Shown: positions 31,572 through 52,078 of the stretch, in pieces
How the letters are laid out: every line of letters starts with the position of its first letter
Numbering within the stretch: the first letter of the stretch is position 1
Assembly: GCA_026004395.1 (NCBI GenBank)
Contig: BPJB01000001.1
Location: forward strand, 841,226 to 905,225
Direction: 5' to 3'
From: Patescibacteria group bacterium
Lineage (GTDB): Bacteria; Patescibacteriota; Microgenomatia; Levybacterales; UBA12049
DNA: 64,000 bases
Made by a program: the position numbers and the translations under genes
The notes under the pieces: generated by a model
The model's input: only the letters and a program-made list of their open reading frames with translations
What the model was told of the DNA's origin: nothing
The model's database searches: none

Positions 31572-31622
31572 AAAATCACGAAATGCCGCTCGAGTGTGAA
31601 TTTGCGATTTTTCTTACAATTC
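31572..31622. repeat. REP-like palindromic element, copy 3 (diverged; in the divergent promoter region between 30826..31494 and rplJ)
   Basis: aaatcacGaaatGccgctcgagtgtgaatttgCgattttTcttacaattct; 4 substitutions relative to copies 1 and 2. Confidence 0.8.
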
Positions 31623-32606: not shown

Positions 32607-32681
32607 CGTTTGTCCTTGCGACAAGCAAAGCGAGGAGAAATCTCCTCTAAACAAAAATCAAGGAAAGGTGGTGAATGAAAA

Positions 32682-33275: not shown

Positions 33276-36200
33276 ATGGGGTTTCTATCACCCATCACAT
33301 TACTTTATCAACAGCTTTCTTTGAAAAAAAGATATATCTTACTTACTCTTTTACTTTTCATACTCCTCCCACTTTTTCTTCTTGTAGCTTTTCGATCAAC
33401 AGAACTTCGCAATCGTGCATCCACCACAGCTTCTCTTGAAGCGGAGGACGGTACAGTTGTAGGTGATGTCCAAATCATATCCGATGCCAGTGCCTCCTCA
33501 GGAAAATACATTGAATTTTCCAAATCAAACACAGCAATCATTGGAACAAAATATTATGTAGATTGTGTAAATGGCAATGATAATAACAGTGGCACATCAG
33601 AAAACTCAGCTTGGAAATCATTAACAAAAGCCAGTCAAGCCAATCTTTCACCGGGAGATGGGTTACTCCTCAAACAGGGATGTGTATTCTCTGACTCTTT
33701 AAGCATCCCTTGGCAAGCAACTGATACAGCTCCTATTGTTATTTCATCTTATGGACAAGGAAATCCTCCTATTATCAGAACATCGGTCAATAACTCAGCA
33801 GGTGTAAAAATTAGCGGATCTTATATCATCATACAAAATATAACAGCCGAGGGTATAGCTCCAACAATTGATCCGGGTTGTTCGGATAATTCTAAAGGCT
33901 ATATAGTCGGTTTTCAGTTAGAGGATGGCTCTCATCATATAACCTTAAGAAACGTAAAGGCAACAGGAAACTATGCAGGAGTATATATCAAAACAAACTC
34001 GTCATTCAACAAAATTCTCAACAGTACATTTGCAAATAACCGTATGATGAACCCACTTGATACAGCAAGTGATAATGACGCAGGCGCATTTGGTATCCTT
34101 ATTCATGGAAAAGATAATGAAATTGCTTATAATACTCTCTCTGGACAGGATGCGTGCTCATATGATTATGGTAGAGATGGTGCGGACATTGAGGTATATA
34201 AAGGACAAAGAAATAACATTCATCATAATATAGGCAGTAATAGCGATGCATTTACTGAACTAGGTGGTGACAGTAGCATAAAGGCTGCAGATAATATATA
34301 TGCCTATAATGTCTTCACATCTTCTCTAAATAAATCAATTTTTCTTGTAACTCGTGGATCAGGAGTAAAATACGGTCCCGTGTATAGGACAAAGCTTTAT
34401 AACAACTCAGTGTACCTAACTGGCGGATCATCGCAAGGATTTGTCTGCCATGCAGGCTGCAGTAGCGAAATTCTCACTATGCGCAACAATATCATCAAAG
34501 CTGGTCAAAAAGATGGCTACGCTGATGGTACATTTGATGAAAATTATAATCTTTATGGAGGAACATCCCAACAATTTACTCTTGGACCAAATAGCAAAAA
34601 AGCAGACCCTCGATTCACTAGTACAATCAATCTTCATCTTCAAGCGGGCAGTCCAGCCATTGACGCTGGCAGCCAAGACTCAATATCAGCAGGATATCGA
34701 AATGATTTAGACAATACTCCTGTTCCACAAGGTAGTGCTGTTGATATGGGTGCATATGAATATAGATCAGTACTTGGAGCCAAAACACAGGCAATTGGAG
34801 GACAAGTTCTGCAAGCATCTTCAAAGCCAATAACTATCGCGGCAGTTGGCGATATGAATCCAGATGGCAACACTAGCACCACCTCACCCTCTGGTAAGAA
34901 CGCTGCGGCAATAGCAGCAGGATTGGCAAATGGATCAATTGATGCATTTTTAGGTCTTGGCGATTTTCAATACAGCATTGGCAACTGCTCATCATTCGTT
35001 AATTATTGGAATCGTTTATGGAGTGGCACCAAATCTAAACTCTATTGGATAAGTGCTCCTAACCATGACTGGGAGCCAGGACGAAATGAGGATTTGGATG
35101 ATTTTATGAATGGAGCCTGCCCCGGTGATAACGTAAAAAGTGCTATTAATGCTCAGCGTGGATTTATCGGCAATGGTGATCCGTATTCTTTTGATATTGG
35201 TAATTGGCATTTTGCGATGCTTAGCACTGCCTTATGGCGTTATGATACAACCAAAGCAAGACAAGTAACTACATGGCTTGATAACGACCTCGCGCAAGCA
35301 AAAGCTGCTGGCAAATTTCTTGTCGTTGCCTACCATGATCCCTATTTTACCAGCAACACCTCTTCCCACAGCCGGGAGACAGCTGTGAAACCTTGGATAG
35401 ATATTATGGACAAATATGATGTACGATTGACATTGTCAGGTTCTCAACATAACTATGAGAGATCCTGTCCTGTCACCAAAGATGATATCTGTGCTGCAGA
35501 GAACGATCCGAATGGCATGACAGCATTTCAAGTCTCAACTGGCGGAATTGGACTACGTTCATTTACAAGCTCACCCTCCTATATTGTCAAAAGGTTTTCC
35601 GATACATGGGGCTGGCTTAAATTATCTCTTTATCCTGACGGATCTTTCTCATGGCAATTTAATCCCGTACAAGGATCAAGCACCGACTCCGGATTTCGAC
35701 CTGCTCCGGGAAGCAGTATCTCCCCTGCTCCAACATCCACTCCGACTCCATCTCTGACACCTACACCCCTTCCTTCACCAACACCAACTGCTTCTCTTTC
35801 AACACCTACTCCAACAGCCACTCCATGCCCAGTTATACCCCAAAATGCTGGATCAGTAGTAACATCTATTACAATTCCTACAGAGGGAACATATGCTGTC
35901 TGGTCTAGAATCAAAGCGAACGATGAATTTAACAACTCTTACTTTCTGCAGATAGATGACTCCTGTCCATATGTTGTGGGTGATGCATCTTTGATCTCTA
36001 AAGATGCATGGAGTTGGGTGAATTACCAAAATGGTAATCCGCAACAAAAGATTGAAATTAACCTTAAGCAGGGAACACATATTATTAAACTAATAGCACG
36101 TGAAACTGGGGTCAAAGTTGATAAACTCCTCTTTCTCTCTGATAGCAGCTGCATACCAACTGATTTAGGAGATAACTGTACTGCATCTACTCTTCCTACA

Positions 36201-37304
36201 CCCACGAATACCCCAACTCCTACACCAACATCTACTCCAACTCCTATTTCTACACCAACACCTACACCATCACCTACGCCAACAAGCACTAATACTCCCA
36301 CTCCACATCCAACCTCTTCAACTACACCTACACCGATTTTAGGACAAACCATAGATCTTTTACCTTTGGCTGATACTTTTGTACGAAAAGACCATCCAAC
36401 CCGCAACTATGGATCATCTACTCATCTTGAATCAGACGGTGATACAAGAGCGATCTCATATCTTAAATTTGATCTTAGAGCACTTGCTGGTAAATCTTTA
36501 ACAACTGCCCAATTATCACTAACAATAACCAATCCGTCTAAACAAGCGCACTATATTTATCTTTTGACCAATACAGCATGGGAAGAATCTACTATAAACT
36601 ATGCAACACGCATAGAACCTACAAACTCTCCTATCGCTTCAATTCCTCCTTCAGACAAAGGCAAAAAGCTTACAATCAATCTTACACCTGCTCTTAAAAA
36701 CCACTTAGGTGAAATAATCACTTTAGCAATTACTTCATCATCTAGCGATGGAATGGACTTCTACTCCAAAGAAGCAGCATCAGGCAAACCACTACTCTCC
36801 ATAGCAACAGATACTCAATCTGTTAGTACATTAAAAGAAGAAGTATTCTTACCTATTGATGATACATTTGTCCATAAAGACAACCCCCAAACCAATTATG
36901 GTTCATGGAAATCATTGGAAGTTGATGGGGATCCACAAAAAATTATATATATGAAATTTGATCTATCAAAGTTAGCAGGAAAAATAATTCGTCATGCAGA
37001 ATTAAGATTTCGTGTTAAAGATACTTCATACTCAACACAGATTATTCGTTTTGTTGAAAATCATCAATGGGATGAGCACACTTTAAATTTTGTAAAACGA
37101 TACCAACCCTCACTACCAATTCGAACAATTCATGGAGGTAAAAAGGATACTTATCTTAACATTGACGTTACCTCAGTTGTACAGCTTAAAGCAGGCACTA
37201 TTTTTTCTTTTTTGATTGAATCAAACGGTAGTGATGGACTTGATATCTACTCCAAAGAGATACCCAATCCTGACTATCGTCCCGCACTGATAGTATCCTA
37301 CTAA
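33276..37304 (+). CDS. Giant secreted multidomain protein: signal anchor, right-handed beta-helix region, purple-acid-phosphatase-like metallophosphoesterase, PT linkers, two tandem DNRLRE-like C-terminal domains
   Basis: Metallophosphatase motifs GDMNPDG, GDFQY, NHDWEPG, YHDPYF, GSQHNYERS. Two ~150-aa internal repeats (LPLADTFVRKDHPTRNYGSS...YLKFDL / LPIDDTFVHKDNPQTNYGSW...YMKFDL) match the DNRLRE domain pattern. The minus-strand ORFs inside are frame shadows of the PT linkers. Confidence 0.6.
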   Translation: MGFLSPITLLYQQLSLKKRYILLTLLLFILLPLFLLVAFRSTELRNRASTTASLEAEDGTVVGDVQIISDASASSGKYIEFSKSNTAIIGTKYYVDCVNGNDNNSGTSENSAWKSLTKASQANLSPGDGLLLKQGCVFSDSLSIPWQATDTAPIVISSYGQGNPPIIRTSVNNSAGVKISGSYIIIQNITAEGIAPTIDPGCSDNSKGYIVGFQLEDGSHHITLRNVKATGNYAGVYIKTNSSFNKILNSTFANNRMMNPLDTASDNDAGAFGILIHGKDNEIAYNTLSGQDACSYDYGRDGADIEVYKGQRNNIHHNIGSNSDAFTELGGDSSIKAADNIYAYNVFTSSLNKSIFLVTRGSGVKYGPVYRTKLYNNSVYLTGGSSQGFVCHAGCSSEILTMRNNIIKAGQKDGYADGTFDENYNLYGGTSQQFTLGPNSKKADPRFTSTINLHLQAGSPAIDAGSQDSISAGYRNDLDNTPVPQGSAVDMGAYEYRSVLGAKTQAIGGQVLQASSKPITIAAVGDMNPDGNTSTTSPSGKNAAAIAAGLANGSIDAFLGLGDFQYSIGNCSSFVNYWNRLWSGTKSKLYWISAPNHDWEPGRNEDLDDFMNGACPGDNVKSAINAQRGFIGNGDPYSFDIGNWHFAMLSTALWRYDTTKARQVTTWLDNDLAQAKAAGKFLVVAYHDPYFTSNTSSHSRETAVKPWIDIMDKYDVRLTLSGSQHNYERSCPVTKDDICAAENDPNGMTAFQVSTGGIGLRSFTSSPSYIVKRFSDTWGWLKLSLYPDGSFSWQFNPVQGSSTDSGFRPAPGSSISPAPTSTPTPSLTPTPLPSPTPTASLSTPTPTATPCPVIPQNAGSVVTSITIPTEGTYAVWSRIKANDEFNNSYFLQIDDSCPYVVGDASLISKDAWSWVNYQNGNPQQKIEINLKQGTHIIKLIARETGVKVDKLLFLSDSSCIPTDLGDNCTASTLPTPTNTPTPTPTSTPTPISTPTPTPSPTPTSTNTPTPHPTSSTTPTPILGQTIDLLPLADTFVRKDHPTRNYGSSTHLESDGDTRAISYLKFDLRALAGKSLTTAQLSLTITNPSKQAHYIYLLTNTAWEESTINYATRIEPTNSPIASIPPSDKGKKLTINLTPALKNHLGEIITLAITSSSSDGMDFYSKEAASGKPLLSIATDTQSVSTLKEEVFLPIDDTFVHKDNPQTNYGSWKSLEVDGDPQKIIYMKFDLSKLAGKIIRHAELRFRVKDTSYSTQIIRFVENHQWDEHTLNFVKRYQPSLPIRTIHGGKKDTYLNIDVTSVVQLKAGTIFSFLIESNGSDGLDIYSKEIPNPDYRPALIVSY

Positions 37305-38468: not shown

Positions 38469-39047
38469 TTATTGACTACCGGTATTTACCTCACCAGTGG
38501 TATCTGTATTGTGCCCACCGGTATTGTTTTCTAATAAACTTGGAATTCTTAACCCATTTTGATCGAATTTAAATCCAAATAATGTGCCCAAAACCAGATT
38601 AAGAATCAGGAATGAGCCAAAGACTACAATCAAGCCGATTATGGCACCGATAATCGTATAACGTGCTGACTCGACTTTGGTCTTATCACCACCTGATGTG
38701 ATCCATTTGATCCCTCCCCAGATGAGGAAGATAATAGCTACCAATGCACCTGCTATCAGCAAATAGGTGAGAATAGTTTTGAAAAGTGTATCAGCACTAG
38801 TAGTGGTGCAGAGTACTTGTAGCTTCCCATCTTTTGGACATAAAGAAATACTCTGTTGATCAGTTGTTGATGTACTGGGTGTGGGAGTAGGCTGTGAAGA
38901 TTGAGAAAAATCAAATGCAGACCAAGCGGCAAGTGCTTGAGGAGCTGAAGTAAAGTAAAGTGAAAAAATTAGTACTGCGGAAAGCAATTTTCTACGAGAA
39001 GAAATCATAGCTAATTTAGCATAAGCATATAAAAAATGAAATGTCAA
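38469..39047 (-). CDS. Small secreted 2-TM protein, possibly VirB2/TrbC-like pilin or holin-like (probable start at 39005, MISSRR...)
   Basis: Signal peptide (SAPQALAAW), PT tract, then helix (LLIAGALVAIIFLIWGGIKWI), charged loop (TSGGDKTKVESARYT), helix (IIGAIIGLIVVFGSFLILNLVL): the VirB2/TrbC topology. No other T4SS genes are nearby. Confidence 0.3.
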   Translation of the reverse strand: MTFHFLYAYAKLAMISSRRKLLSAVLIFSLYFTSAPQALAAWSAFDFSQSSQPTPTPSTSTTDQQSISLCPKDGKLQVLCTTTSADTLFKTILTYLLIAGALVAIIFLIWGGIKWITSGGDKTKVESARYTIIGAIIGLIVVFGSFLILNLVLGTLFGFKFDQNGLRIPSLLENNTGGHNTDTTGEVNTGSQ

Positions 39048-39560
39048 ATTAATTTTTAAAAAAAATCAATACATTGGCGCTATTTTTCATTTTTCATAAT
39101 AAAATAGTTTATGGCAGAAATATTTTCAAGTTTATGTACTGCAGTATTAAAAAAATAGCAGATCATGATCACTAGAATATCTAATTAGATTCGAAGATGA
39201 CTATTGGATCAGTCTTATTACTTTGTTCATCATGTTGCTGTTGGTAATAATAATTATGGGTTTTTATATCTTCTAATTTTTCTCTACCCCGCTTGTCTTC
39301 TGATTTTATGATGCAATCCCTTAATAGTTGCTTTCTTCCAAACTATATAATTCTTTTCTATATTACCACCCCACCACTCTTTTACAACTCACTCTTTGAG
39401 AGTGTGATAAAAGTTTCCAACTAGAGAGATCTTATTTATCAAGCTATGATATTCGTTAAAAACGAAGATCTTAGTACATCTTAGAGCAAAATATGAACTC
39501 TAGGTTTTCTCTCTATAAACATTTTTAAAGTCATTTGTAAAAAAACATATTTTATTTTTT

Positions 39561-40337
39561 GGTAATTATGTAAAAATCGATACAATTCTAGTAAATGTTA
39601 CAAATAATGGATCGATTTAACTGTCTGTTTTGCATTTATGGACGACTCAAAACAAATTCTGAGAGTGCGATGCAAAAGGAGATACTCGTATGAGCGTACA
39701 AACGTATCAAGAAGATCCTTGAATATTCCACGTTGGAGATACCTACACACCGTGTAGCAAAGTTTATGAAGATTAACCACAGAACTGTTTTGAACATATA
39801 CCAAAAGCTTCGAAAATTGCTTGCTGATGAATCTCACAAGGAGCGGAAGAAAGTGCTTTCTGGTGAGATCGAGATTGATTGATGATGCCTACTTTGGCAA
39901 ACGAAAAGGACAACGAAGGAGAGCTGTGCTGAGGAGGTGCTTGTTTTGGGCATGCTTGAAAGACATGGAAAGGTGTTTACTACTCTTCCTGAGAAATTGG
40001 GAGTTCCCCAAGTTGCAAAGATCATTCAACGGTAGTCTGAAAAAGGTAGTATCTTTTACACGGACAAGTACCGTTCCTAAAATTCGCTGGTATTCTTCGG
40101 AAAACACCTGAGACTTGATCATCCAAAGGAGTTTGTGAGAGAGGGAAACATTCATCTTAACGGACTGGAAGGCTTTTGAAGTTTTGCCAAAGAAAGAATC
40201 CTCCAATACCATGGTGTTTCGAGAAGATACTTCTTCTATTATCTGAAAGAGCTTGAGTTTTGGTACAACCATAGACAAGAAAACCTCTACCCTACTTTGA
40301 CAAATTTTTATTTTATGTCGAAAAGTACATAATTACC
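39561..40337 (+). mobile_element. Degraded IS1595-family insertion sequence (~777 bp) with terminal inverted repeats and an inactivated transposase
   Basis: IRL ggtaattatgtaaaaatcga (39561..39580) matches the reverse complement of IRR (40318..40337) at 12/12 then 4/8 positions. The internal ORF from ATG 39607 reads MDRF...GEIEIDDAYFGKRKGQRRR [frameshift] ...LGMLERHGKV...GSIFYTDKYRS*NSL...VREGNIHLNGLEGF*SFAKERILQYHGVSRRYFFYYLKELEFWYNHR, matching the IS1595 DDE transposase consensus. One frameshift and three stops fall at conserved Y, Y and W positions. Confidence 0.7.
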
Positions 40338-40388
40338 AAAATAATTATTATTTGTATAAAATGAAATGATATAATTTAATAGTCTCAT

Positions 40389-41603
40389 ATGGATGATACA
40401 AGTAATGAAATTGAAATAATTGATGGTGGGTCAAAAGTTGATTTTTATGAAGCAGACACAGGAGAGTCCGCTGTTGGGTTTTCAGCACAAGCTCAGCGTG
40501 ATAAATTTTTAGGTGGAAGTGCAAATGAAACTACAAATACTATGCTTGAAGAAAAGAAGCCAATCTTACCACCAATTGATGAAGTTAAATCACACGTACT
40601 ACGCTGGTCTGATCCAAATGTCAGAAGACAATATGCTGATGCTGTCCAATCATTGTATCGAGCTGAAGAGGTAGATACGCCTGAAGGAAAAAGAATAAAT
40701 ATGGTCAGAACAAGCATCATGGATTTAACTCATTCTGTTCAAGGAACACAACAGAAAATTCACAACATTGGTACTGCACATGATAAAAATCCTAACTCGG
40801 AAATGAATGTAATATTAAGGGAAAGAGTACAAAATTATATTGAACAAACACCTCGTGAACAACGATATTTTATGTTAGAAGGCTGGAACGCACCAGAAGG
40901 ACAAGATCTACCTAAGGAGTACAGAGACTTACTGGATAGTGTCAAACAGCAAGAAGGTGAAACAGAGGAGGATGCATATCAAAGAGTGGTACAAAGATTT
41001 GGTGAACAGGGAATAGGATTATTCTATGCAATGAAGTTGGGTATTCCAGTAGACTTTCATACTGAGATCTCACAAGAAAAAGAAGTTGAAGCATTTAAGG
41101 CAGCAGGACTATCGGAAACAGATATTGCTGCGTTTTTACTGCCAAAATATTTAGATATTTACAAACAAGGAAATGAGTTTAATCCTGATGATCAATTTAC
41201 TCAGCAACAAATTCTTGAGGCAATATCTAAAATAGCGAAGGTAACTGGTTGGAAAAAAGACGAACTTGAGACATTATCACCTGATCAACAAAGAAAATTT
41301 ATTGCACAAGCTGTAGCAGAAGTAAATCAAGTTACTCAGAAAGAAATTGGTAGAGTTATTATTAGTTCTGATTATCGACCTCAATATAAATTTGCCAATG
41401 AGATAGCAAGTTATCGAGATAGATCACGTGTTGCATCTACAATGTTTAGTGTAGGAATCGATACTAGAGATTTACATGTTACTGAGCGTGCTTATAAAGC
41501 AGTCCAAGAAGGTAAAAGTCCATTCCTAATATTTGGAGACTCACATACTTACAAGATTGATCCAGCGCTTACATACCTATCCTCACAAGCAAAAGCTGCC
41601 TAA
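40389..41603 (+). CDS. Hypothetical cytoplasmic protein (404 aa) sandwiched between IS remnants
   Basis: Long ORF in the local low-GC context with no signal peptide and no recognised motif. Confidence 0.4.
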   Translation: MDDTSNEIEIIDGGSKVDFYEADTGESAVGFSAQAQRDKFLGGSANETTNTMLEEKKPILPPIDEVKSHVLRWSDPNVRRQYADAVQSLYRAEEVDTPEGKRINMVRTSIMDLTHSVQGTQQKIHNIGTAHDKNPNSEMNVILRERVQNYIEQTPREQRYFMLEGWNAPEGQDLPKEYRDLLDSVKQQEGETEEDAYQRVVQRFGEQGIGLFYAMKLGIPVDFHTEISQEKEVEAFKAAGLSETDIAAFLLPKYLDIYKQGNEFNPDDQFTQQQILEAISKIAKVTGWKKDELETLSPDQQRKFIAQAVAEVNQVTQKEIGRVIISSDYRPQYKFANEIASYRDRSRVASTMFSVGIDTRDLHVTERAYKAVQEGKSPFLIFGDSHTYKIDPALTYLSSQAKAA

Positions 41604-41685
41604 TTGCCTACGCTGTTGCAAAAATTAACCATATTTACTTCTTGTGCACGCAAATTAAAGTTGTGTATTAAGGTCTCCAAATAGG

Positions 41686-42027
41686 GGTATCGTCACCTGG
41701 AAGGTGAAACACAGCTGATGAAACAATTGCCTCCTACAGAAAACGTTTCCAGATTGAGGAATGGTTTAAGGATCTAAAACACCAGTTAGGAATTGCAGAG
41801 ATTCAAACAAGACATCTCGCTCGTGTTGAAACTATGCTGTTTCTCCTATGGAGTTTTGCTGGTGGTTGGAAGAGTATAGTCGATGCTTCCAAGTCTCTCA
41901 AAGACAGACTGATTACTGGTGGGAGACAGGTTGCTTCTCTTATCTGGTCTGCCATACGGATTATCAAACACAAAATGATGGGAAAAAACTTCTGGAAAGA
42001 GGTTATCCAGTTGGCTATAGGACCGTA
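41686..42027 (+). pseudogene. 3' fragment of a DDE transposase gene (IS4/IS5/IS701 superfamily C-terminal signature)
   Basis: Translation DETIASYRKRFQIEEWFKDLKHQLGIAEIQTRHLARVETMLFLLWSFAGGW contains the Y-x-x-R-[WF]-x-IE-x-x-F-K-x-LK motif that carries the catalytic E. It is truncated upstream with a frameshift after IVTWKVKHS. Confidence 0.6.
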
Positions 42028-42199
42028 GCTACCAGCCTTAAGATTCTATCCTGCCCAGAGAAATACTGGATGCGGGAGTTTTGTGGTGGGAAGATCACGG
42101 AAAAACCCACCGCATACACTACACTTAGCAAAGTTTCTAAAAATCAGCACTATTGTACCAATTTTCAGCGATGAAAATATCAAAGTGGGGTAATCTCAG

Positions 42200-43720
42200 G
42201 CAATTGCCGGCAGAAGAGGAGACGGGCGAGCGAACGGCACGATTGCCCTTCGCATTCTGGGCGCGTCGGAGAAGACGATTCACTTCTCCGAAGAGAGCGT
42301 CCGCGACTTGATTCGCCCTTTCCTCGACGAATCTGCCAAACGCCTCATCAGTATCGTCGATGAGATGGAGTACTAGGTTGACCACGTTCAGGAACTCAAA
42401 ATCGTTGGCTCCGATCGTGATCGAGACCAGCGTTCGCCGGCCAGCGGCCGATCTCGGTCGGTCGCCGATGACCTTGAGCACCTCGGTTACCTGGTTCCCC
42501 AGCGACTTCGACGGCGGCTGCTGTCTGCACAACCCCAATGCCCTGTTCCTCCAAGCGGTCGCGCCAGAACAGATCATATCGTAGAAGTTAACCTTCTCGT
42601 GCCGTTTCTGAAGCATGCGGGAGAACCCGTCGGGGGTACGAATCCAGAGACTGCCGGCACTGCTCGCCGCTGTCCCGAAGGCCATGGCCCAAGGCGATCG
42701 AGTCGCCGAGAGCGAAGTAATCGATCTCGCTCTGTGCCGACGAACAGGTGCCATTCACGCATCTTTGCTTACTTTCGCAGACGTTGCCACACGCCCCTCA
42801 GTTCTGGGGGTCGGAGGACGTGTCGACGCAGATGCCGGCGCACGGCTTCTTGCCGCTCAAGCAGCGCCTGCATTTGCCTTCGATGAAAACCGTCCCGCAG
42901 CGGCAGGCCTCGATGTCCATCCCCGAGTGCCACCATTCTTCGTCTCCCTCAGCGGGGATTACTCCCCACCTCTTCACCCATTCCTCCCACGGTTCCACGG
43001 TCGGATTCGCTTCTGGTTCCACGGCGTAACTCTCCTGTAAGAGTCTGTTTCAAAACCTCTCGGGAGCTCGGTGTGCATCTGAACGTTAACCACATCTTGG
43101 AAAACGATAGGTTCGGGGGGGTTCATACTTCAGGTTCTTCGGATATCGTCGCTCGTTGACGTCGCCGGAAAGTGTTTTCTGTGGTATAATTTACTTCGGC
43201 AGGGGCGAAACGGCGTTAGATCGCCGTCACGGCTGGGAGTGATCGCCAGCCGTCCGAAAGCTTGCGGGTAATCGGCCGGGATTCCTAGGAAAGCTTGGAC
43301 CCTTCTGGGTAAAACGAGCCGCAAGACGGCAGGTGCAGCATGATGGGCGCACGTCCCATCCACCCCGCCTAAGAGAAGCAGCCCACCGAGTTGGCTCGTG
43401 GGCTGCCGCCTAGATCCTTATTCGGTTACTTGCGCGGAATGTACTTGCTCGGGATGATGATGTCCTGCCGGCCGAACGGACCGCCCCTACATCATGCAGC
43501 GTCCCATGGACGCCCCAGATTTGGTCGCCACGGCGGTCATAGCACATGTGCGCACCGTCGGTGAAGATGCTCACGTGTTGCCAGCCGCCCGGCCTGAATT
43601 CGATCTGCCCGCCCTTTGCCCCTGGAGGAAGAAGGTTCCCTCCGAAGGAAGCGTTTTGACCTGAGCCAGCCATTTCCCGACTCCTGCGGAAAAGGGATGT
43701 GACCCCGGCGGTTTATGGAA
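42200..43720. other. GC-rich (~60% vs ~35% background) foreign island with only fragmentary coding potential
   Basis: Abrupt composition shift; ORFs open in nearly all six frames. The minus strand encodes a GDSL/SGNH-hydrolase-like fragment (LVSITIGANDFEF) and a fragment ending PGGWQHVSIFTDGAHMCYDRRGDQIWGVHGTL, resembling the C-terminal H-X9-DG signature of Planctomycete DUF1559 prepilin-type proteins. Confidence 0.6.
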
Positions 43721-43742
43721 TCGTCACCTGGATGGTGAAACA
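43720..43742. repeat. Direct repeat copy B of atcgtcacctgga(a/t)ggtgaaaca; copy A is at 41689..41711
   Basis: 22/23 identical. Both copies mark the start of the IS4-like transposase fragment sequence (IVTW.VK) and bracket the GC-rich island. Confidence 0.7.
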
Positions 43743-43794
43743 GATTCGCTACCTGACAATTTGATAAATGAACTAGATGCGTAAATATAGATAA

Positions 43795-44881
43795 GAGAAG
43801 GGTAATAATGGAGCAAAATTCTCTTTTTCACTCAGATTTTGTAATCCTTCCGCAAAACATATTGCTATTCCACAGAAGTGGACGTTTTTAAGAGGTGTTG
43901 GAAAAGATATTCTTTCAGAAAAAGCACGGGACAAGCTGGAATGGATAATCTACTATAATACCATTGCCAAAAAGCATGCTTTATATACAGCATCATATTT
44001 TGGGATTAGTCCTAAAACATTACATAAGTGGCTGACACGATTTGATGAAAAGAATCTTTCCTCTTTGGAAGAACAAGCCAGAAGACAGCAGAAGGTGAGA
44101 TCCTGGATAGTCACCAAAGAGGAAGAAATAAATATTATGAAGTTGAGACAAAGAAATCTAGAACTAGGAAAGAAAAAACTGCAGGTTCTTTATCGGAAAG
44201 AATACGGAGAATATATTTCTACCTGGAAGATTGAGAGAGTAATTAGAAAACACAAGCTCTATTGGGATTAAGTTAAACATGATTACCTGGTTGAAAAAAG
44301 AAGTAAATCTGAACCTAAGATCAGAATCCATACAATCAAGGAACAACTACAACAAATCAAAGAGTTTGGTTTCCTCTGGTATATTGATGCCATCATTATC
44401 TGGTGGTATGGACAAAGAAGGATCATATTTACAGCGATTGAGGAGATAACCAGGATTACCTTCGTCAGATGCTACAAAACCAATACCCTCTGGATTTGCA
44501 GAAGACTTCTTAAAAAGATTGCTGTATTTATCCAATGGAAAGATAAACATCATGTATCAGGATAATGGTAGTGAGTTTAAGGGAGCATCTCAGAGAGCAT
44601 GTCAAACACTTGGCATTATTCAAATCTACTCAAGGCCACATACTCCTCAGGATAATCCTGTCCTTGAGAAGTTTAATGACACAATTCAAAAAGAATGGCT
44701 GGCATTATCTGCTGTGGGGATTGATGACATTGATGAAGCAAACAAAGATCTAACCAACTGGTTGGTCAAATACAACATCTACCGTCTTCATCAAGCCCTT
44801 GATTACAAGATTCAATTGGAGTATGATCAAGAGCACTTCTTTCAAGTATTACCGATGTGGTCAGCCAGAACATCCCCTTGA
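43795..44881 (+). pseudogene. IS481/IS3-type (rve integrase-core) transposase remnant, disrupted by an in-frame stop and a +1 frameshift
   Basis: Frame 1 gives the HTH part (...FGISPKTLHKWLTRFDEKNLSSLEEQARRQQ...KHKLYWD), a TAA at 44269, then the DDE core (EFGFLWYIDAII ... ). A shift to frame 2 gives IMYQDNGSEF...RPHTPQDNPVLEKFNDTIQKE...YNIYRLHQALDY (rve D, D, E). There is no in-frame ATG for the full-length product. Confidence 0.6.
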
Positions 44882-44975
44882 CATCTTTGTTATAGTTTGT
44901 TACTTTATTATTAGTTAATCATTAAAATGTTTCTCTATAAATAGGAATGATTAACTAAGACATACTTCCGAGCTT

Positions 44976-45191
44976 ATGGCTGATCAAAAGATATCAATCA
45001 ATGACCTTCCAGATCTACTCACTGTACGTGAGGTAGCAGAAGTGCTACGAGTTTCTCCTCTTACTATCAAGCGCTGGGGTAAAAGAGGCAAACTTCCAGC
45101 AATCCGTATAAACTCTCGCGGTGACCGCCGTTATAAAAAAGAAGCTGTCCTCTGGTTATTAGGCATTCAAGAAAAAAACAATAACCTTTAA
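44976..45191 (+). CDS. Excisionase/MerR-type helix-turn-helix DNA-binding protein (Xis-like)
   Basis: LLTVREVAEVLRVSPLTIKRWGKRGKLPAIRINSRGDRRYKKEAV fits the excisionase-family HTH_17 pattern; adjacent to IS remnants. Confidence 0.55.
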   Translation: MADQKISINDLPDLLTVREVAEVLRVSPLTIKRWGKRGKLPAIRINSRGDRRYKKEAVLWLLGIQEKNNNL

Positions 45192-45275
45192 TTTTTCTTT
45201 TAACTCCTTTTATTCTTCGTATTTTTTCATCTGTTTTGCTATAATTGCAGCCAACTGCTGAGCAATATTTACAAG

Positions 45276-46067
45276 ATGATAATCGAAAGAAAAATAAACA
45301 GACGAGAAGCTATTACCTACCTAGCAGGCAGTATTGTCTCAACCCAAAATTACATTGACAATCGCTATGAGCCAAAAGAACAACTTGAACAGCGATCTTT
45401 TGAGGTAGTGTCAATCACATTCCATGAAGTTGCAAACAGCGATCAAATGCTTCAGATTATTTATCCCCTGCTTAATGAAGGGTATATTCCTATCTCTATC
45501 AGAGATGTTCTAAAGGCTATCAATAATCAAGTAGATCTTTCCAAGACCAAATCTTTATTGATCACTCTTGATGATGGCTTGAAAAGCCAAAAAAATGCAG
45601 TATTGGCAGCAACTCAGGCTGAAAAATCATGGGGTGTTACTCTCCCTCTTCTTTTTGCTGTGATGACGCAGTTTAATTATTATAACGACGATCAAATTCC
45701 TCTACATACTCCATCGTACAATGATCATGTGCATGAATACTTAACCAAAAAAGACATTCTGCAAATCATCGAAAATCCATCTTTTGATCTAGCTAATCAT
45801 ACGCTCAATCACGCTGATCTGACTAAACTTAATGATGACGATCTTATCGGAGAGTTAACAATTGCGCAGAGAAGGCTATCTATTCTCTATAGCGAAGCAG
45901 GAAGACAAAACACACCAAGAATACTTATCTATCCTTTTGGAAAATATAATCAGCATGTTTTACAAACTGTCTCAGATCTTGATTTTGAAGCAGCTTTCAC
46001 CACCAAAAATGATACATTGTATTCGGCTAAAAAAAGATTGCGTTTGGGAAGAATAGGAAAAACTTAA
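45276..46067 (+). CDS. Polysaccharide deacetylase (CE4 / NodB-homology domain)
   Basis: ITLDDG (the TFDDG-type motif), ANHTLNHADL His motif, YPFG. Confidence 0.6.
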   Translation: MIIERKINRREAITYLAGSIVSTQNYIDNRYEPKEQLEQRSFEVVSITFHEVANSDQMLQIIYPLLNEGYIPISIRDVLKAINNQVDLSKTKSLLITLDDGLKSQKNAVLAATQAEKSWGVTLPLLFAVMTQFNYYNDDQIPLHTPSYNDHVHEYLTKKDILQIIENPSFDLANHTLNHADLTKLNDDDLIGELTIAQRRLSILYSEAGRQNTPRILIYPFGKYNQHVLQTVSDLDFEAAFTTKNDTLYSAKKRLRLGRIGKT

Positions 46068-46086
46068 GGGAAAATACACTCAATAA

Positions 46087-48204
46087 CTATTTAACGTAGG
46101 TTAATCTGATATAAAAAGCTCCACTCTTCCAAGATGGACTATTCACATAAGTAGAATATTTCAGAAAATCCAAATCTGAGTAACTAGTCTGTGTCGTCCC
46201 ATAAAAAACAGGTGCAGCAGAATTATCAAACCTTAAGATATAATAAGCATTTGCTTTCAAAGCAAGATTGACAGTTGCATAATACCACGAAGATGATACA
46301 CCAGCTGAGGTTGTATTGGCAATTTCACGACCAAATGTACCTGTGCTATCTGACTCATACAGCACAAAACGTGTACTGCTGCCACAACGATAGCACTCAA
46401 CTTTTTTAAGAGTCATATCATTTTTAACTCTAAAAAGAGTGCGTTTAGAATCGTATGTATTAAAGTACGAAAGATTGGTCAGGCTAGGATAGGAACTCTG
46501 AACAAAAGTTTGTTGGACAGACGTTGTAGGTGTTGGGGTGGGAGTTGGTGTTGGTGTAGGCATAGGTGTAGCTGTAGGCGTTGGTGTTAATGTAGGTGTT
46601 GGTGTCGGTGTTAGAACAACTGTAGGTGTTGGTGTCGGTGTCGGTGTTGGAATAATTGTTGGTGTTGGAGTAGGAGTTACTTGTGCTGAGCCGGAAGAAA
46701 TAGTATAGACAACTGTTGCCTGATTGTTGCCGTATGTTGCCTCTTTACCTGTTTGTCCGTTATTAAGATAAATTCTTGCTGTATATGTACCCTCGATATC
46801 CTTAGACCATGATTTACCATTGGGAAAGAAAGATCTATCAGCACTTACTGGACTAGCATCAAACGAAACAGTACTAAATCCGGGAATTTCTGCCACTTTA
46901 AGATATACATTCACATCCGAGGAAGTATTTTTCAGAATAGGATCTGGCGCATCAGACATGACAGGTGATGTCATTGTACCGCTGACGACGCGCACCGGGC
47001 GATAACCAAGGTTACGTACTTTAATACGAGGATAGATCTGTCTTCCCGGAGGAAATACTGTCCTCTCTACTCCATCGCTATCTGTAAGTGCAAATTTTTC
47101 TACCACTAAATCTCCATAGCTATCTCCTGATGGAAGAGGTATCTCAACACCTGCTTTAATCGGTTTTCCAAAAACAGGAGCACCAGTTGATCCCCAAGTA
47201 AATTTTTGAGCTCTGATTGTCCTTTTCTCAGAAGAGCTAGTAGTATTGCGGGCATGATAAATAATCCAATCCTCTGTACCATCTGGTGACTTGGTAAATG
47301 CATTGTGTCCCGGACCATATACCCCATCTGTTTGCTTGAAAACAGGAGAAGATCTTTTGGACCAAGATGAAGGATTTAGCACCTTACCATTACTATTGGT
47401 GATCATCCCTAAACAATAATCAGGAGTAGCAAAAAAACTAGCTGAGTAAGTAATAAATGTTTTGCCATTTCTCTGGAGTACAGCTGGTCCTTCAACTATA
47501 CCAAATGTTGTACCATTCCATCCCTTCTTCTCCCAAGAATAAGTAGCCTGTACTATTGATACACGATTGCCACTTATAGTATAGGGATTGCTCATGGGCG
47601 CTATATAAATTTGTTGCCATGCTGTCAGATCCGTCCCCGGTCGTCCCGACCAGACGAAATACAGTTTGCCATCAGTGTGTCGAAATACTGTACCATCAAT
47701 AGCCCAAGCATTAGGAGCATTGGGTGGAGCGATTTTGCCTTTAAATGTATATGGACCCTGTGCATCCTGAGTCTGTGATTCCAAAACGTACATCCTATGA
47801 TAATGATCATCCCCATTATCAGCTGCAAAGTAAATATACCATCTGCCATCTAGATAATGAATTTCAGGTGCCCAGACATTGCAGCAATACATCGTTCCTG
47901 CCGGAGCAGTCCAGACGACTACTGGTTTGGCATATTTTAGATCAACTGGCGATTCTGTCTTCCAAACTGTTATTTTGCTACCTTCTGTTTTGACAAAGTA
48001 ATAATAACCATCTTTATAAAATATGTGTGGATCAGCGCCAGTCATTAGAGGATTAGTAAATGTCTGAGTTGATGCCTGAACAGGATGAGTTGAATTTCCT
48101 ACGGCAGATACCCCCAAGATAAGTAGGGCAAGAGAAAGAAAAAAGATAATTCCTTTTTTAGTAAACATATAAATCTGCTTAAATTCCCAAGGATTATATA
48201 ACAA
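46087..48204 (-). CDS. Secreted GH43-family glycoside hydrolase with CARDB-like domain, long PT linker and C-terminal beta-rich domain (probable start at 48168)
   Basis: GADPHIFYKDGYYYFV and WAPEIHYLDGRWYIYFAA five-bladed-propeller GH43 signatures. The CARDB-like segment (RQIYPRIKVRNLGYRP...TYTARIYLNNGQ...NNQATVVYT) is paralogous to the one in 24121..25365. 50-aa TPTPTP linker. Confidence 0.65.
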   Translation of the reverse strand: MLYNPWEFKQIYMFTKKGIIFFLSLALLILGVSAVGNSTHPVQASTQTFTNPLMTGADPHIFYKDGYYYFVKTEGSKITVWKTESPVDLKYAKPVVVWTAPAGTMYCCNVWAPEIHYLDGRWYIYFAADNGDDHYHRMYVLESQTQDAQGPYTFKGKIAPPNAPNAWAIDGTVFRHTDGKLYFVWSGRPGTDLTAWQQIYIAPMSNPYTISGNRVSIVQATYSWEKKGWNGTTFGIVEGPAVLQRNGKTFITYSASFFATPDYCLGMITNSNGKVLNPSSWSKRSSPVFKQTDGVYGPGHNAFTKSPDGTEDWIIYHARNTTSSSEKRTIRAQKFTWGSTGAPVFGKPIKAGVEIPLPSGDSYGDLVVEKFALTDSDGVERTVFPPGRQIYPRIKVRNLGYRPVRVVSGTMTSPVMSDAPDPILKNTSSDVNVYLKVAEIPGFSTVSFDASPVSADRSFFPNGKSWSKDIEGTYTARIYLNNGQTGKEATYGNNQATVVYTISSGSAQVTPTPTPTIIPTPTPTPTPTVVLTPTPTPTLTPTPTATPMPTPTPTPTPTPTTSVQQTFVQSSYPSLTNLSYFNTYDSKRTLFRVKNDMTLKKVECYRCGSSTRFVLYESDSTGTFGREIANTTSAGVSSSWYYATVNLALKANAYYILRFDNSAAPVFYGTTQTSYSDLDFLKYSTYVNSPSWKSGAFYIRLTYVK

Positions 48205-48471
48205 ATCGTAATTATATGCAAGAGCTTAATCTAGCTAAGAAGCGGCAACATTTACTGAATTCTTGCTCAATATAATCTAATGTTTAAAAGAATCAATCAA
48301 CAAGATGAATGCCGTAGAATTAATACTTTAAAGACAAATTACTGAAGTATTTATTTTTGAGTATTTTACAATTACAAACTTAAAACAATTACACTTTTCT
48401 TATATTTACATACTAAATTAAAAGAGAAATTGAAAATCAATTTCTAAATTTGAAAGATTAAAATTTAAAGG

Positions 48472-49905
48472 TTGCTTAATATTATAGGATATAATATAAT
48501 TGTAATAAATATGAGTAGTGAACTTGGACGATTTTTCCATGATCAGGAGAGAATACTCCACCGCACAGGAGAGTATGCGCAAGCCTTGCGATTGCATACA
48601 AATCGATTTATTGGTTATATCTCTAAGTATCCAGAAGTCACTGGCGTTGTGGGTCTAGGATTCCCTTTCTATCTGCCTCGCAATATCTCAGATAGCGTAC
48701 AAATTACAGAAATGAACCGTTTTACTCAAGAAAAGAAAAGTACTCTTACTGCAGAATCTTTGCAGAATTGGAGATGTCCAACCTGTTTTAGTGAAAATGA
48801 ACTTCAAGGCACACGCAATCAGCAATGCAAAAACTGTGCCCTAGAAAAATTTAAGCCTAGCGATATCCAAAAAACATATATTGACCTTGACTTGCTTTGT
48901 TTAATCTCAGGCGATGAACAATCCTGTCGCAAGACTGCAGAAAAAATTGCTTTTGATATGAGAATGGGTCTTTTCCCTCCCTTAGATTTAGATCTCAATG
49001 CCAGTCTTTCACAGTATTCTGCTTTTACTCAATCTCCCTATGAAGTTCCACCCCCTCTTGATCTGCATTTTGTTAGAGCTGAAGAATATTTAGAGGTGAT
49101 AAAAAATATTGGAGATAATCAACCAACAAGTCTGAACGTACTTTCTGCATACGAGAGCCTTAAGTCAGATAATATGCCTTTTGGGATGGGGAGCCTATTT
49201 CTTAGCGAACCAGTAATTTTGGATCAAGAGTTTCTGCAAGCTGTCAATGAGAAACGTAATCAACTTCTTGATCAACATGAAGGTGCGCAACAAGTCTTGG
49301 AAAAGATTAAAATTTCATCAGGACAGGTACGTAGAATGTTCTCGCAAAAGGATATGCAAGAAGCAATCATCGAAAAAATTGCCTCTCCTCTTCATCTTGC
49401 AGAAAAAACAATTTTGGTATTTGGGACAACAATGCCCAAAAACAGCAAACTTGATGATCAGGATTTACGCAAAACTGAGGCTTTATGGAGGATCATAACC
49501 GCTATTGATCTTGCCAAAAAAACTAATTATCCTATTCTTTTTACAGGATTTGAAAGTGAAGAAATGGCTTCGTGGCTCATAGCTCAAGAACCAAATCTTG
49601 CAGCTAACGTATTTATTGAACCCTTTTCTCACTCAACAGAAGAAAACATCAGAAATGTTGTCTTTTTTGAAAATAAATTAATGACAGATAGATGGATAGG
49701 CGTCTCCAACTCATGGCATCTTGAGAGAATCCGCTGGGTAATACAGCCTAGAACAGGATTTAGATTTACTCCCTATCCAATAGAACAAACAATGCGCACT
49801 CAGGGAGTATCCCAAGATAGAATTCTTAATTTTCAAAAGATACGTTATGAAGAAGAAGCCACAAGAATCCAACAAATGACCGGATATCGCCCATCGTTTG
49901 TTTAA
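48472..49905 (+). CDS. Hypothetical protein with internal CxxC...CxxC zinc ribbon and C-terminal DUF218 (YdcF/SanA/ElyC)-like domain
   Basis: CPTCFSENELQGTRNQQCKNCA; C-terminal ILFTGFESEE...EPFSHSTEENI resembles the DUF218 E..S.NT.EN motif. Confidence 0.4.
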   Translation: MLNIIGYNIIVINMSSELGRFFHDQERILHRTGEYAQALRLHTNRFIGYISKYPEVTGVVGLGFPFYLPRNISDSVQITEMNRFTQEKKSTLTAESLQNWRCPTCFSENELQGTRNQQCKNCALEKFKPSDIQKTYIDLDLLCLISGDEQSCRKTAEKIAFDMRMGLFPPLDLDLNASLSQYSAFTQSPYEVPPPLDLHFVRAEEYLEVIKNIGDNQPTSLNVLSAYESLKSDNMPFGMGSLFLSEPVILDQEFLQAVNEKRNQLLDQHEGAQQVLEKIKISSGQVRRMFSQKDMQEAIIEKIASPLHLAEKTILVFGTTMPKNSKLDDQDLRKTEALWRIITAIDLAKKTNYPILFTGFESEEMASWLIAQEPNLAANVFIEPFSHSTEENIRNVVFFENKLMTDRWIGVSNSWHLERIRWVIQPRTGFRFTPYPIEQTMRTQGVSQDRILNFQKIRYEEEATRIQQMTGYRPSFV

Positions 49906-50094
49906 AATTAATGTTCTCTATTGAAACATTTTTAATAGTAGAACAATGCAAATATTTATTTCTGATTTTAACAGAAAAGTTTTTTTTAAGTTCACAACCA
50001 TAAAACATTTCTTGATAAATAAGAAGACTAAAAAAACGCTCTCCAATAACTTTCGAAAACAGATATTTATAACGACAAAAAAATATTTTCTAAG

Positions 50095-50143
50095 AAATCA
50101 CAAATTCACACTCGAGCGGCTTTTTGTGATTTTCTCTTACAAG
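50095..50143. repeat. REP-like palindromic element, copy 4, with inverted hairpin core (between convergent gene ends)
   Basis: aaatcacaaattcacaCTCGAGcggctttttgtgattttctcttacaag. The hairpin arms equal the reverse complement of copy 1's arms, while the 3' tail (t.ctcttacaa) keeps the same orientation. Confidence 0.75.
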
Positions 50144-50194
50144 TTGGTTTTGAGAGATAAAAATTGATAAAGATAAATAGTTTTTGATATGTTT

Positions 50195-51091
50195 TTATAC
50201 TGTAAGGTGGTATTCTGCCTGATGCTCTTTGAGTATTTTCTCAAAATTAGGTTTGTGGAAATGTTCTTTTATAAACTTGATTGTTTCCTGAGGATTTTGG
50301 GTATTAACAAAGACATTTGTCCCAACCTCAAATCCTCCCAGCGTTTTGTTGCGTGGAATTATTCGCAGATACCAATCTCCTCCGGGGTAGATATAAAAAT
50401 TATATGGAAAATCATTACCATGACGTACATCAAAAATTTTAACAAGTCGAGACAGGATATCTGCAAGATCGTGAATTTGTTCATCAGTTATCTCACCAAA
50501 TATCTGACCATCTTTGCGCGGTGCAATCCATACTTCATCTGGCCAATTAGATGTTTTGGGACAAAAAATTCTAAAATACTCAGTTTTAATACCATCTGGA
50601 ATATCTGATGAAACATACTGAAGACAGGGAATATCAAGAAATACTTTTTCTGGTATTACAACAAGCTGAGTGTGAGGATGAGGAAGACTCTCACCTGCTT
50701 TCTGACCGCGATTGTGAAAAATATAGACCTGACCTTTATAATAATATTCATTAAATTGATGTCTATATACTCCCAACAACAGCTCTATTTGATGCAGATC
50801 TAAACTCTCAAATCCTTTGTGATGATCCGGTGAGTTGATAATCACCTCGTGTATTGGAGCAAAAGGAAATTTATTGGGAATAACTCTAACTTTCCAGTTT
50901 GAGTCAGGATATTTACCCCCAATCCTAAAAATTTCTCTCTCAAGATGCTCGCGGCCAGGACAAAACGGACAAGGAGGCTCAATACCATTGGCAATGTCTG
51001 GACGTTTTGCGCGTCGCGGTGCTGATATGACCCAGCGCTTGGAAAGTGAATTTTTGATGAAAGTAAAATCAGGCATTATAAAAAATTGCAA
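50195..51091 (-). CDS. galT: Galactose-1-phosphate uridylyltransferase (HIT-family GalT)
   Basis: CPFCPG zinc site and HPHTQ active-site His-Pro-His; 298 aa. Confidence 0.75.
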   Translation of the reverse strand: MQFFIMPDFTFIKNSLSKRWVISAPRRAKRPDIANGIEPPCPFCPGREHLEREIFRIGGKYPDSNWKVRVIPNKFPFAPIHEVIINSPDHHKGFESLDLHQIELLLGVYRHQFNEYYYKGQVYIFHNRGQKAGESLPHPHTQLVVIPEKVFLDIPCLQYVSSDIPDGIKTEYFRIFCPKTSNWPDEVWIAPRKDGQIFGEITDEQIHDLADILSRLVKIFDVRHGNDFPYNFYIYPGGDWYLRIIPRNKTLGGFEVGTNVFVNTQNPQETIKFIKEHFHKPNFEKILKEHQAEYHLTV

Positions 51092-51172
51092 ATTATAATA
51101 CTAAGATAGAATTAGCAATCTCCTACTGTTTTTATTAAAAGTAATATTTGCAAAAAATGCAAATAACTCAAG

Positions 51173-51982: not shown

Positions 51983-52078
51983 AGATCTATCATAAAGCTA
52001 TATTGACAAAACAGTCAAGAGAATACCAAGAAAATTTACTTCTGCTTTCTGTTTTCTAAATTATGCTACGATGAGTAT

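Follow-up and report, generated by a model that had tools for sequence, protein, structure and literature searches.

A GC-rich island of probable foreign origin between copies of a short direct repeat in a Patescibacteria chromosome

We analysed a GC-rich island in the chromosome of a Patescibacteria bacterium, represented by the metagenome-assembled genome (MAG) KatS3mg089. The island (42200..43719, no strand assigned; 1520 bp, GC 0.59) lies in a 64-kb stretch, hereafter called the window, of a contig of 1,084,101 bp. In all likelihood it represents a genuine insertion of about 1.5 kb of dead foreign DNA, which this low-GC chromosome acquired from a GC-rich bacterium outside the candidate phyla radiation (CPR). 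The insertion is fairly recent, and the fragment is non-functional for its new host. It is part of a 3.2-kb stretch of mobile-element debris (41689-44872) and is located between two copies of a short repeat, termed R, which also occurs in two other CPR genomes. An earlier note on this DNA, made from the letters of the sequence, had explained the island either by horizontal gene transfer (HGT) between phyla, delivered by an insertion sequence (IS), or by a chimeric assembly joint.

Composition, foreign origin and assembly of the island

The GC jump that had been noticed between about 42200 and 43720 was confirmed. In windows of 200 bp, the GC content rises from 0.39-0.45 to 0.56-0.63 (from ~42200 to ~43700) and then falls to 0.35-0.39. 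A maximum-likelihood fit with two breakpoints placed the borders at 42187 and 43711, with a GC content of 0.593 inside and 0.369 outside. The GC content of 0.591 between 42200 and 43719 is 7.5 standard deviations above that of all other 1520-bp stretches of the window (z = 7.5), the next highest of which reaches at most 0.443, and there is no other kilobase with a GC content >0.44 in the 64 kb. For comparison, the GC content of the whole genome is 36%, versus 59% in the island. The GC content at third codon positions (GC3) is 0.66-0.79 in the open reading frames (ORFs) of the island, far above the host range of 0.20-0.32 (mean 0.262, n = 29 long host ORFs). Therefore, the DNA is essentially unameliorated.

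The closest relatives of the island genes are found on GC-rich, non-CPR-like contigs, and our searches did not retrieve any CPR homologues. A comparison with annotated plasmids and phages, at both the DNA and the protein level, did not give a match. Together with the foreign GC and GC3 values, the position of the nearest relatives supports a transfer between phyla, one of the two options of the earlier note. All coding features of the island are encoded on the minus strand, and their layout looks native: a Cys-rich ORF and a gene for an SGNH hydrolase are co-directional, the GC content dips between genes, and convergent units share a hairpin. Moreover, contig L006 shows the same arrangement as the island, a small gene followed by an adjacent 28-nt motif, which supports the notion that the island is one contiguous piece of a donor chromosome. 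It looks like a single contiguous fragment from a GC-rich non-CPR bacterium.

A native CPR region of odd composition, such as a conserved gene subject to special constraint, would likewise be present in the assembled genome, but nothing further speaks for this explanation. None of the 29 long host ORFs has a GC3 value in this range, the island genes carry truncations or frameshifts, and their relatives are located solely on GC-rich non-CPR-like contigs. We therefore regard the probability of a native origin as negligible.

The window stems from a hot-spring metagenome that was sequenced with PacBio Sequel II HiFi reads (>Q20, N50 10,544 bp) and assembled with metaFlye (Kato et al. 2022; PMC9671151). 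In this study, mg089 is a Patescibacteria genome of at most five contigs with an estimated contamination of 0%, and the community contains many GC-rich taxa, Planctomycetota among them. The 205-aa ORF of the island is part of the NCBI deposit as KatS3mg089_0875. The same locus is covered by a Logan contig, which derives from a separate k-mer assembly (de Bruijn, k = 31) of run DRR290133. This contig begins at window position 38729 and is 100.000% identical to the window across the 17,339 bp retrieved (38729-56067), including both island junctions and both frameshifts described below. Window and Logan contig probably go back to the same run and hence represent non-independent data.

An artefact would mean that a 1.5-kb GC-rich piece of another hot-spring organism was introduced by mis-assembly or by a chimeric library molecule. 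Such an origin is compatible with the abrupt change in composition at both ends of the island, with the many GC-rich taxa, including Planctomycetota, of the same community and with the probable derivation of window and Logan contig from one run. But an excursion of 1.5 kb that rejoins the same genome within 2 kb is an implausible overlap mis-join for HiFi reads of ~10 kb, and identical junctions in a k = 31 de Bruijn assembly need junction-spanning k-mers that were seen repeatedly. The borders share no repeated sequence other than a mismatched 23-mer, which is too short and too imperfect to bridge either assembler. Furthermore, a protein collection that included the DRR290133 assembly did not contain any intact, near-identical version of either the SGNH gene or the small gene, so that no co-assembled donor was available to make a chimera. 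Frameshifts in two of the three island genes are also unexpected if the donor was alive. Since the HiFi and Logan assemblies agree on both junctions, the chimeric joint considered in the earlier note is very unlikely, and an artefact of any of these kinds seems highly improbable to us. Taken together, there is strong indirect evidence that the island junctions are real.

Gene content of the island

The left part of the island is occupied by an SGNH/GDSL hydrolase pseudogene (42200..42758, minus strand) with a GTG start at 42758, in agreement with the earlier assignment of an SGNH/GDSL piece. SGNH hydrolases are characterized by block I (GDS, with the catalytic Ser), block II (Gly) and block III (GxND), as well as block V (DxxH), which is needed for a functional enzyme. 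Blocks I-III (GDS, G, GxND) are present in the island gene, and the stretches YFALGDS (block I), CSGATA and ITIGANDF are invariant in an alignment with P0002 and P0003, its only relatives (37-41% identity). A +1 frameshift is located at a GGG run (42619-42621). Two stitched versions of the gene were compared with Pfam. One of them reaches 23.9 bits with PF00657 (cut-off 23.6) and 30.1 bits with PF13472 (cut-off 32.9), while both scores are slightly under the cut-off for the other version; P0002 passes both. The gene matches the profile up to position 99 of 178, and ~130 C-terminal residues are missing. Block V, with the catalytic Asp and His, is not present in the island gene; P0002 carries it as DCFHPN ~130 residues beyond the end of the island match. 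The reading frame runs on for 21 codons into AT-rich DNA up to a stop at 42137. A chimeric gene that contains block V in this AT-rich tail was rejected, because adding the 21 codons leaves the profile coverage unchanged.

An intact ORF for a 74-aa Cys-rich protein (42798..43022, minus strand) is located 40 nt upstream of the SGNH gene and runs in the same direction. Its product shows a sub-threshold match to MXAN_6577-like cysteine-rich proteins.

The third gene is a small gene (43426..43673, minus strand), which would encode ~82 aa if repaired. It has kept its ATG start at 43673 and its ribosome-binding site and carries a frameshift at a run of four C (43484-43487). Both frameshifts of the island were checked against intact relatives and are located in runs of just 3-4 bases. 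When aligned from its own start, the small gene shows 75% identity along its full extent to P0004, a complete protein of 75 aa encoded on L006 (50.5% GC). When 1.84 billion representatives were searched exhaustively with HMMER, eight matches at E < 1e-3 were obtained. Half of them are stand-alone proteins of 64-76 aa, and the rest is repeat noise (WD40, Laminin_G and other repeat-rich proteins). The small island gene and its relatives P0004 and P0007-P0010 form an unnamed small family with the pattern GGNLLPPGA...GWQHVSI[FY]TDGAH.SYDR.GD...HGT.HDV.GGG. The earlier note had read this part of the island as a DUF1559 (H-X9-DG)-like C-terminus. DUF1559 proteins (PF07596) are ~250-350 aa long, have an N-terminal prepilin-type signal and carry H-X9-DG at the C-terminus. 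The motif of the small gene is H-X5-DG (HVSIFTDG) instead, none of the eight HMMER matches is a DUF1559 protein, and the gene did not match any Pfam or NCBIfam model, even at E = 0.1-1. The assignment to DUF1559 was thus wrong: this is a complete gene of ~82 aa with relatives of similar size. The statement that the island contains only gene fragments also needs to be qualified. It holds for the SGNH gene, which lacks its C-terminus, but not for the intact 74-aa ORF or the small gene, which is full length apart from one frameshift.

With the loss of the DUF1559 assignment, the label "Planctomycete-type" given to these genes is left with a single hint: one SGNH relative of ~40% identity is located on a contig with 64.6% GC that also carries a Planctomycete-type cytochrome gene (PSCyt1). 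Judged from this sequence neighbourhood, Planctomycetota would be a weak guess for the donor lineage.

Between the Cys-rich ORF and the small gene lies a non-coding region of ~400 bp (43023..43425, plus strand) with an extended -10 element, a possible structured RNA and a hairpin. The extended -10 element (TGgTATAAT) is located at 43182-43190. A textbook sigma-70 promoter at 43155-43190 was rejected, since its spacer would be 23 nt and the promoter scanner did not make a call; the extended -10 element remains. Downstream of it, a GC-rich stretch of ~180 nt (43196-43375) could fold into a structured RNA, with a fold z-score of -1.67 that is not significant; it may be a small RNA of the donor lineage. 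Neither Rfam, even at E = 10, nor ARAGORN supports a known non-coding RNA in the island, the ARAGORN calls being obtained only at relaxed thresholds and not credible. The 28-nt motif at the end of this stretch (43338-43365, with the hairpin ATGGG-7 nt-CCCAT) is 93% conserved beside the homologous small gene in the unrelated contig L006. Another hairpin (43378-43406) separates the convergent units.

The R element and the surrounding IS remnants

The earlier note had also reported near-identical repeats at 41689 and 43720, which it regarded as derived from a transposase gene. The repeats themselves are real: the 23-mer ATCGTCACCTGGA[A/T]GGTGAAACA is located on the plus strand at 41689-41711 and 43720-43742, these are the sole matches in the window at up to three mismatches, and no match was obtained in 100 shuffles. 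R copy A (41689..41711, plus strand; nhmmer 32.9 bits) consists of the invariant core only (ATCGTCACCTGGAAGGTGAAACA), and its flanks are unrelated to those of other copies on both sides. R copy B (43720..43754, plus strand; 39.1 bits) contains the core with a substitution in the loop (A14 to T) and the tail ..TCGCTACC, which is common to copies in the contigs L002 and L010. The core shows partial dyad symmetry and has a 5-bp stem (TCACC/GGTGA) with a loop of 5 nt (fold z-scores -1.4 to -2.0).

A scan of 185,579 representative genomes for the 23-mer identified one true locus, L002, a groundwater MAG of Candidatus Levyibacteriota with two exact copies 564 bp apart. A further match in a Bacteroidetes MAG (L001) is due to chance, as it lies inside a coding sequence for a PAS domain (NRHLDGET). 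A metagenome scan added one more contig, L010, with two exact 23-mers 612 bp apart (L009 is a 100% sub-sequence of L010), and the viral contigs searched did not contain the 23-mer. A profile search detected three strong and two weak copies in L002, three copies in L010 and two in the window. Of the eight copies with the searched 23-mer, seven have an identical core, and two further strong copies differ by 1-2 substitutions. The core is invariant across three genomes from different sites (hot spring and groundwater). Among the 185,579 representative genomes, the exact core is found at a single locus per genome. The DNA flanking the core differs from copy to copy on both sides, save for a loose ..TCGCYACC tail in four copies. 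Within a cluster, the copies share one orientation and are 0.3-2 kb apart, and the reverse complement of R is usually located 0-18 nt after a stop codon.

The R copies enclose unrelated genes. In L010, a pair of R copies encloses a HicB/HicA toxin-antitoxin pair within an islet that also contains RHH and PIN (VapBC-like) genes and an AbiEii gene. In L002, a coiled-coil repeat protein is encoded between two R copies, and a truncated duplicate (391 bp, 89% identity) of the 3' half of a HAD hydrolase gene ends 3 nt before an R copy. The arrays as a whole (L010 9366-12617 and L002 2470-5517) are located in toxin-antitoxin/defence islets (AbiEii, RHH+PIN, HicBA), and both loci also code for small coiled-coil proteins in which a short peptide is repeated in tandem (ELSKLATKE in L010, LSSKID in L002). 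No conserved flanking gene was found beside R, two proteins of ~310 aa in L002 and L010 being unrelated to each other, and the window is not syntenic with either of the other two loci. None of the three loci has a recombinase gene adjacent to R, nor is one present between 26 and 57 kb of the window. The two Phage_integrase genes of L010 are 8-10 kb away from R, behind housekeeping genes.

One R copy each in L002 and L010 adjoins the 3' tip of an IS481-like element that is truncated at different points (~58 and ~78 nt from the tip), which suggests a recurrent association of this IS481 type with R. The right end of this type (...FF.VLPMWSA.T, tip TGTNCTGGCWGACCACATCGGTAA) was observed in three CPR genomes (L002 3072-3134, L010 12030-12092, window 44780-44872); the stubs in L002 and L010 comprise 60-90 nt, each directly beside an R copy. 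A collinear arrangement of R with the C-terminus of an IS481-like transposase (FHLPGDD versus RLHQALD) was considered and rejected, because these are junctions with unrelated filler between them and not a collinear coding sequence. In the window, R adjoins the interior of an IS4-like gene at copy A and the island at copy B.

Directly after copy A, we found the 3' fragment of a DDE transposase gene of the IS4/IS701 group (41712..42028, plus strand), which confirms that a transposase fragment follows the left repeat. It comprises ~106 codons up to the stop codon at 42026-42028 and encodes the signature of the IS4/IS701 group, Y-(2)-R-(3)-E-(6)-K, as YRKRFQIEEWFKDLK. It matches the C-terminal part of PF01609 (DDE_Tnp_1) with 24.8 bits (cut-off 23; profile positions 152-194 of 200; match 41708-42028). 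The best NCBIfam matches are IS701_3, IS4_2 and IS4_1, all far under their cut-offs because only ~106 residues of the transposase remain. Two-thirds of the gene on the 5' side are missing, as is the left IS end, and neither the N-terminal part nor a second copy of this element is present in the window. A complete IS4/IS701 element would have a full gene, a terminal inverted repeat on either side and a target-site duplication; such an element was not found at this locus. That the repeats mark the start of a transposase fragment is true for copy A but not for copy B, which is followed by unrelated AT-rich DNA.

The 23-mer itself is not part of the transposase gene. Homology to the relatives of the fragment starts at 41717, with no DNA similarity upstream of this position; where the 23-mer translates as IVTWKVK, the relatives have LITNLTNKE or LVTNLPRVA; they read PWFLITNLTNKE and PWWLVTNLPRVA at this position. 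Conversely, R is not accompanied by an IS4-like gene in L002 and L010. The derivation of the repeats from a transposase can thus be dismissed. Since R pre-exists in L002 and L010, where it flanks unrelated cassettes, it is also not a duplication caused by the present insertion. Rather than coming from a transposase or from the duplication of a target site, R belongs to the host lineage as a short conserved element.

Two distant relatives of the IS4-like fragment (43-49% identity; L007 and L008) share ~70 conserved nucleotides with it past the stop codon (CCTGYCCA...TGCGGGAGTTTTGT...TGG.AGA). This non-coding right-end region (42029..42100, plus strand) places the right end of the IS at ~42095-42103. 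An AT-rich spacer without detectable homology (42101..42199, no strand assigned; GC 0.385) follows, and therefore the IS4-like remnant does not touch the island. On the other side, a ~130-bp spacer separates R copy B from a degraded IS481-family element (43885..44872, plus strand), which contains HTH_32 and rve/rve_3 domains, an in-frame stop codon (44269-44271) and a frameshift near 44550. Its right tip (...ACCGATGTGGTCAGCCAGAACA) ends at 44872, while a left inverted repeat was not found. Each IS remnant is hence parted from the island by spacer or R DNA, and both have a host-like GC content; for the IS4-like remnant it is 42%, and its relatives are located on contigs with 38-49% GC.

Further to the left, the locus is bordered by a 404-aa gene without a family match and, farther out, by a gene for a type IV secretion system (T4SS) pilin (VirB2-type; 38469-39047, minus strand), 2.6 kb from the locus. 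On the right, a 71-aa HTH_17/MerR-like gene of the excisionase type (44976-45191, plus strand) is located just behind the IS481 remnant and is followed by a polysaccharide deacetylase gene. Both the T4SS pilin gene and the excisionase-type gene are typical of mobile or conjugative contexts.

Integration of the fragment and comparison with known systems

We propose that a random chromosomal fragment of a GC-rich bacterium was captured and then joined to AT-rich DNA. The block 41712-43719, consisting of the IS4-like 3' fragment, the 100-bp spacer and the foreign DNA, would occupy one slot between two R copies, and site-specific or illegitimate recombination at R is the most likely way in which this block arrived or was put together. 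Uptake by competence or transfer by some vector are possible entry routes. After its capture at this recombination-prone locus, the DNA would have decayed. Natural competence has been shown in Saccharibacteria (PMC10633639). In combination with illegitimate recombination, it would explain how a random chunk that extends from a promoter to the middle of a gene, without mobility genes, ended up in a CPR genome. Competence is a plausible route by analogy, being known for Saccharibacteria rather than for this lineage.

Several points weigh against this explanation. The best SGNH relatives are only ~40% identical, and the searches did not yield a donor lineage; in one version, the stitched SGNH gene scores under the Pfam gathering cut-offs. 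Coverage and junction-spanning reads were inferred and not seen, and the two assemblies probably go back to one read set. Both frameshifts could in principle be consensus errors if the local coverage was low. R is known from only three independent genomes, and integration at R is a conjecture, since no recombinase gene is found beside it in any of the three loci. Finally, the IS4-like fragment is located within the inter-R block, so that an IS-linked history on an earlier replicon is possible.

This last point leads to delivery by an IS, as assumed in the earlier note. An IS4/IS701-like element could have moved adjacent DNA by read-through in the manner of ISEcp1/IS1380 or as part of a composite transposon, with the 23-bp repeats as a long target duplication as in the case of IS1634. 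The transposase fragment and the island do share one inter-repeat block that is flanked by direct repeats, and the fragment weakly matches the IS1634 and IS1380 models, among others. A DDE transposase fragment beside captured DNA and flanking direct repeats are indeed common to all of these systems. But here the repeat abuts the interior of the transposase gene instead of an IS end. The element has lost its left end and about two-thirds of its gene, its right end (~42100) is separated from the island by ~100 bp rich in AT, and it is present as one truncated copy without a second one in the window. The GC content of the remnant and of its relatives' contigs does not fit a donor-type element, and the 23-mer pre-exists in other genomes, where it flanks unrelated cassettes. 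A composite transposon or another IS-mobilised unit, with its cargo bounded by two IS copies or by an IS end and a surrogate end, is also not apparent: the IS4/IS701 and IS481 remnants belong to different families and are both degraded, and we did not find a target-site duplication at the island. Transposition of a neighbouring IS is thus not a likely cause, and delivery of the island by an IS appears unlikely.

A more specific form of the proposed recombination at R would be that R is the core site of an undescribed recombinase and that a unit of 2,031 bp (R, IS fragment, spacer and island) was integrated as a circle by recombination between two R sites. The arbitrary truncated ends would then have been made earlier, by recombination of R with secondary sites. 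Several properties of R are in line with this possibility: the edges of the core are sharp on both sides and the core is invariant across the three genomes; it shows partial dyad symmetry; it forms single-locus arrays of one orientation with cassettes of 0.3-2 kb, including toxin-antitoxin pairs; its reverse complement is mostly located 0-18 nt past a stop codon; its edges abut DNA cut at differing points (IS481-like 3' ends, the IS4-like interior, the island); and the sole difference between copies A and B is in the central loop. On the other hand, there is no recombinase gene beside R, with the Phage_integrase genes of L010 at a distance of 8-10 kb and none in the window between 26 and 57 kb, only three genomes carry R, its hairpin is weak (z -1.4 to -2.0), a terminus-like switch in GC skew is absent from the locus, and, to our knowledge, R matches neither the attC nor the dif consensus. 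We therefore consider such an integration possible but doubtful. Even more tentatively, the R core may be the recombination site of an undescribed cassette-exchange system in Levyibacteriota-like CPR, with the recombinase encoded elsewhere; in function it would be an analogue of integron attC or Xer/dif modules, though with an invariant site of its own, and the island may be foreign DNA captured by it, possibly from the host or a neighbour of an episymbiont.

R resembles integrons, Xer-dependent dif modules and integrative mobile elements exploiting Xer recombination (IMEX) in that short sites in direct orientation, 3' of ORFs, separate small cassettes that often encode toxin-antitoxin systems. 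Integrated units flanked by direct copies of a site are common to dif modules, IMEX and R. In contrast to integron and Xer systems, R is not accompanied by an IntI- or Xer-type gene, and it is 23-35 nt long and conserved in sequence. Sites of the attC type have 55-140 nt and are conserved in structure rather than sequence. An integron, with intI and attI next to an attC array, is not present, as no integrase adjoins any R array. We are not aware of any similarity of R to the dif consensus or its arms, the attC consensus or the GTTRRRY core. Chromosomal dif occurs as one site per replicon at the terminus, marked by a switch in GC skew, and has 28 nt with XerC and XerD arms; the pdif sites of Acinetobacter flank their modules in inverted orientation. 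For R, a single locus per genome in the reference set and direct repeats flanking inserts were observed. A switch in GC skew was not found at 42 kb or anywhere else in the 64-kb window, which speaks against R as a dif site at the terminus. As a short, hairpin-capable intergenic repeat near gene ends, R is also reminiscent of repetitive extragenic palindromic (REP) sequences and bacterial interspersed mosaic elements (BIME). It differs from these palindromes, since the exact core is restricted to one locus per genome in the reference set and not dispersed, the copies of a cluster are co-oriented, and a gene of the RAYT type (REP-associated tyrosine transposase) was not seen.

In a survey of subsurface HGT, transfer into Patescibacteria from diverse donor phyla was described, with recent events being rare (PMC12455944). 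Like the CPR islets of that survey, the island is foreign DNA of another phylum beside mobile-element debris in a streamlined genome. It differs from them in being unameliorated (59% versus 36% GC), very short, non-functional and pseudogenised. The island is thus one more instance of a documented process, unusual solely in its freshness and its junk character. At the same time, it is a clean, HiFi-supported case of a streamlined and probably episymbiotic CPR bacterium that took in DNA of a distant GC-rich phylum whose composition has not yet drifted. If the donor were matched, the fragment could mark the physical association of a CPR cell with a host or neighbour. For catalogues of such regions, neither the DUF1559 nor the Planctomycete label is supported, and the flanking repeats should not be listed as IS-derived. 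R is the more promising lead, as it organises small accessory and toxin-antitoxin cassettes in CPR genomes from hot-spring and groundwater habitats. Should R prove to be a site of recombination, it would illustrate how the gene pool of ultra-small genomes stays flexible.

Some additional features of the window were observed. A palindromic repeat of 38-52 nt (AAATCACAAAATACCGCTCGAGTGTGAATTTGTGATTT) is dispersed in four copies (16747-16798, 30739-30790, 31573-31624 and 50095-50146), two of which are 100% identical. Two copies flank a gene for a 221-aa PaaX_M/Cas2-like protein (30826-31491). This palindrome is distinct from R and looks REP- or terminator-like. The strongest families of direct and inverted repeats in the window are due to Pro-Thr-rich linkers (35720-36335 and 46507-46690) in a 1342-aa CBM96 protein and a 705-aa GH43 protein. 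A tRNA cluster (13298-15484, plus strand) with the order Thr(TGT)-Tyr(GTA)...Thr(GGT)...Trp(CCA) is followed downstream by L10 and L7/L12-like genes (32046-33077). Such a combination represents the classic bacterial tuf/secE-nusG-rpl neighbourhood and confirms an ordinary chromosomal context.

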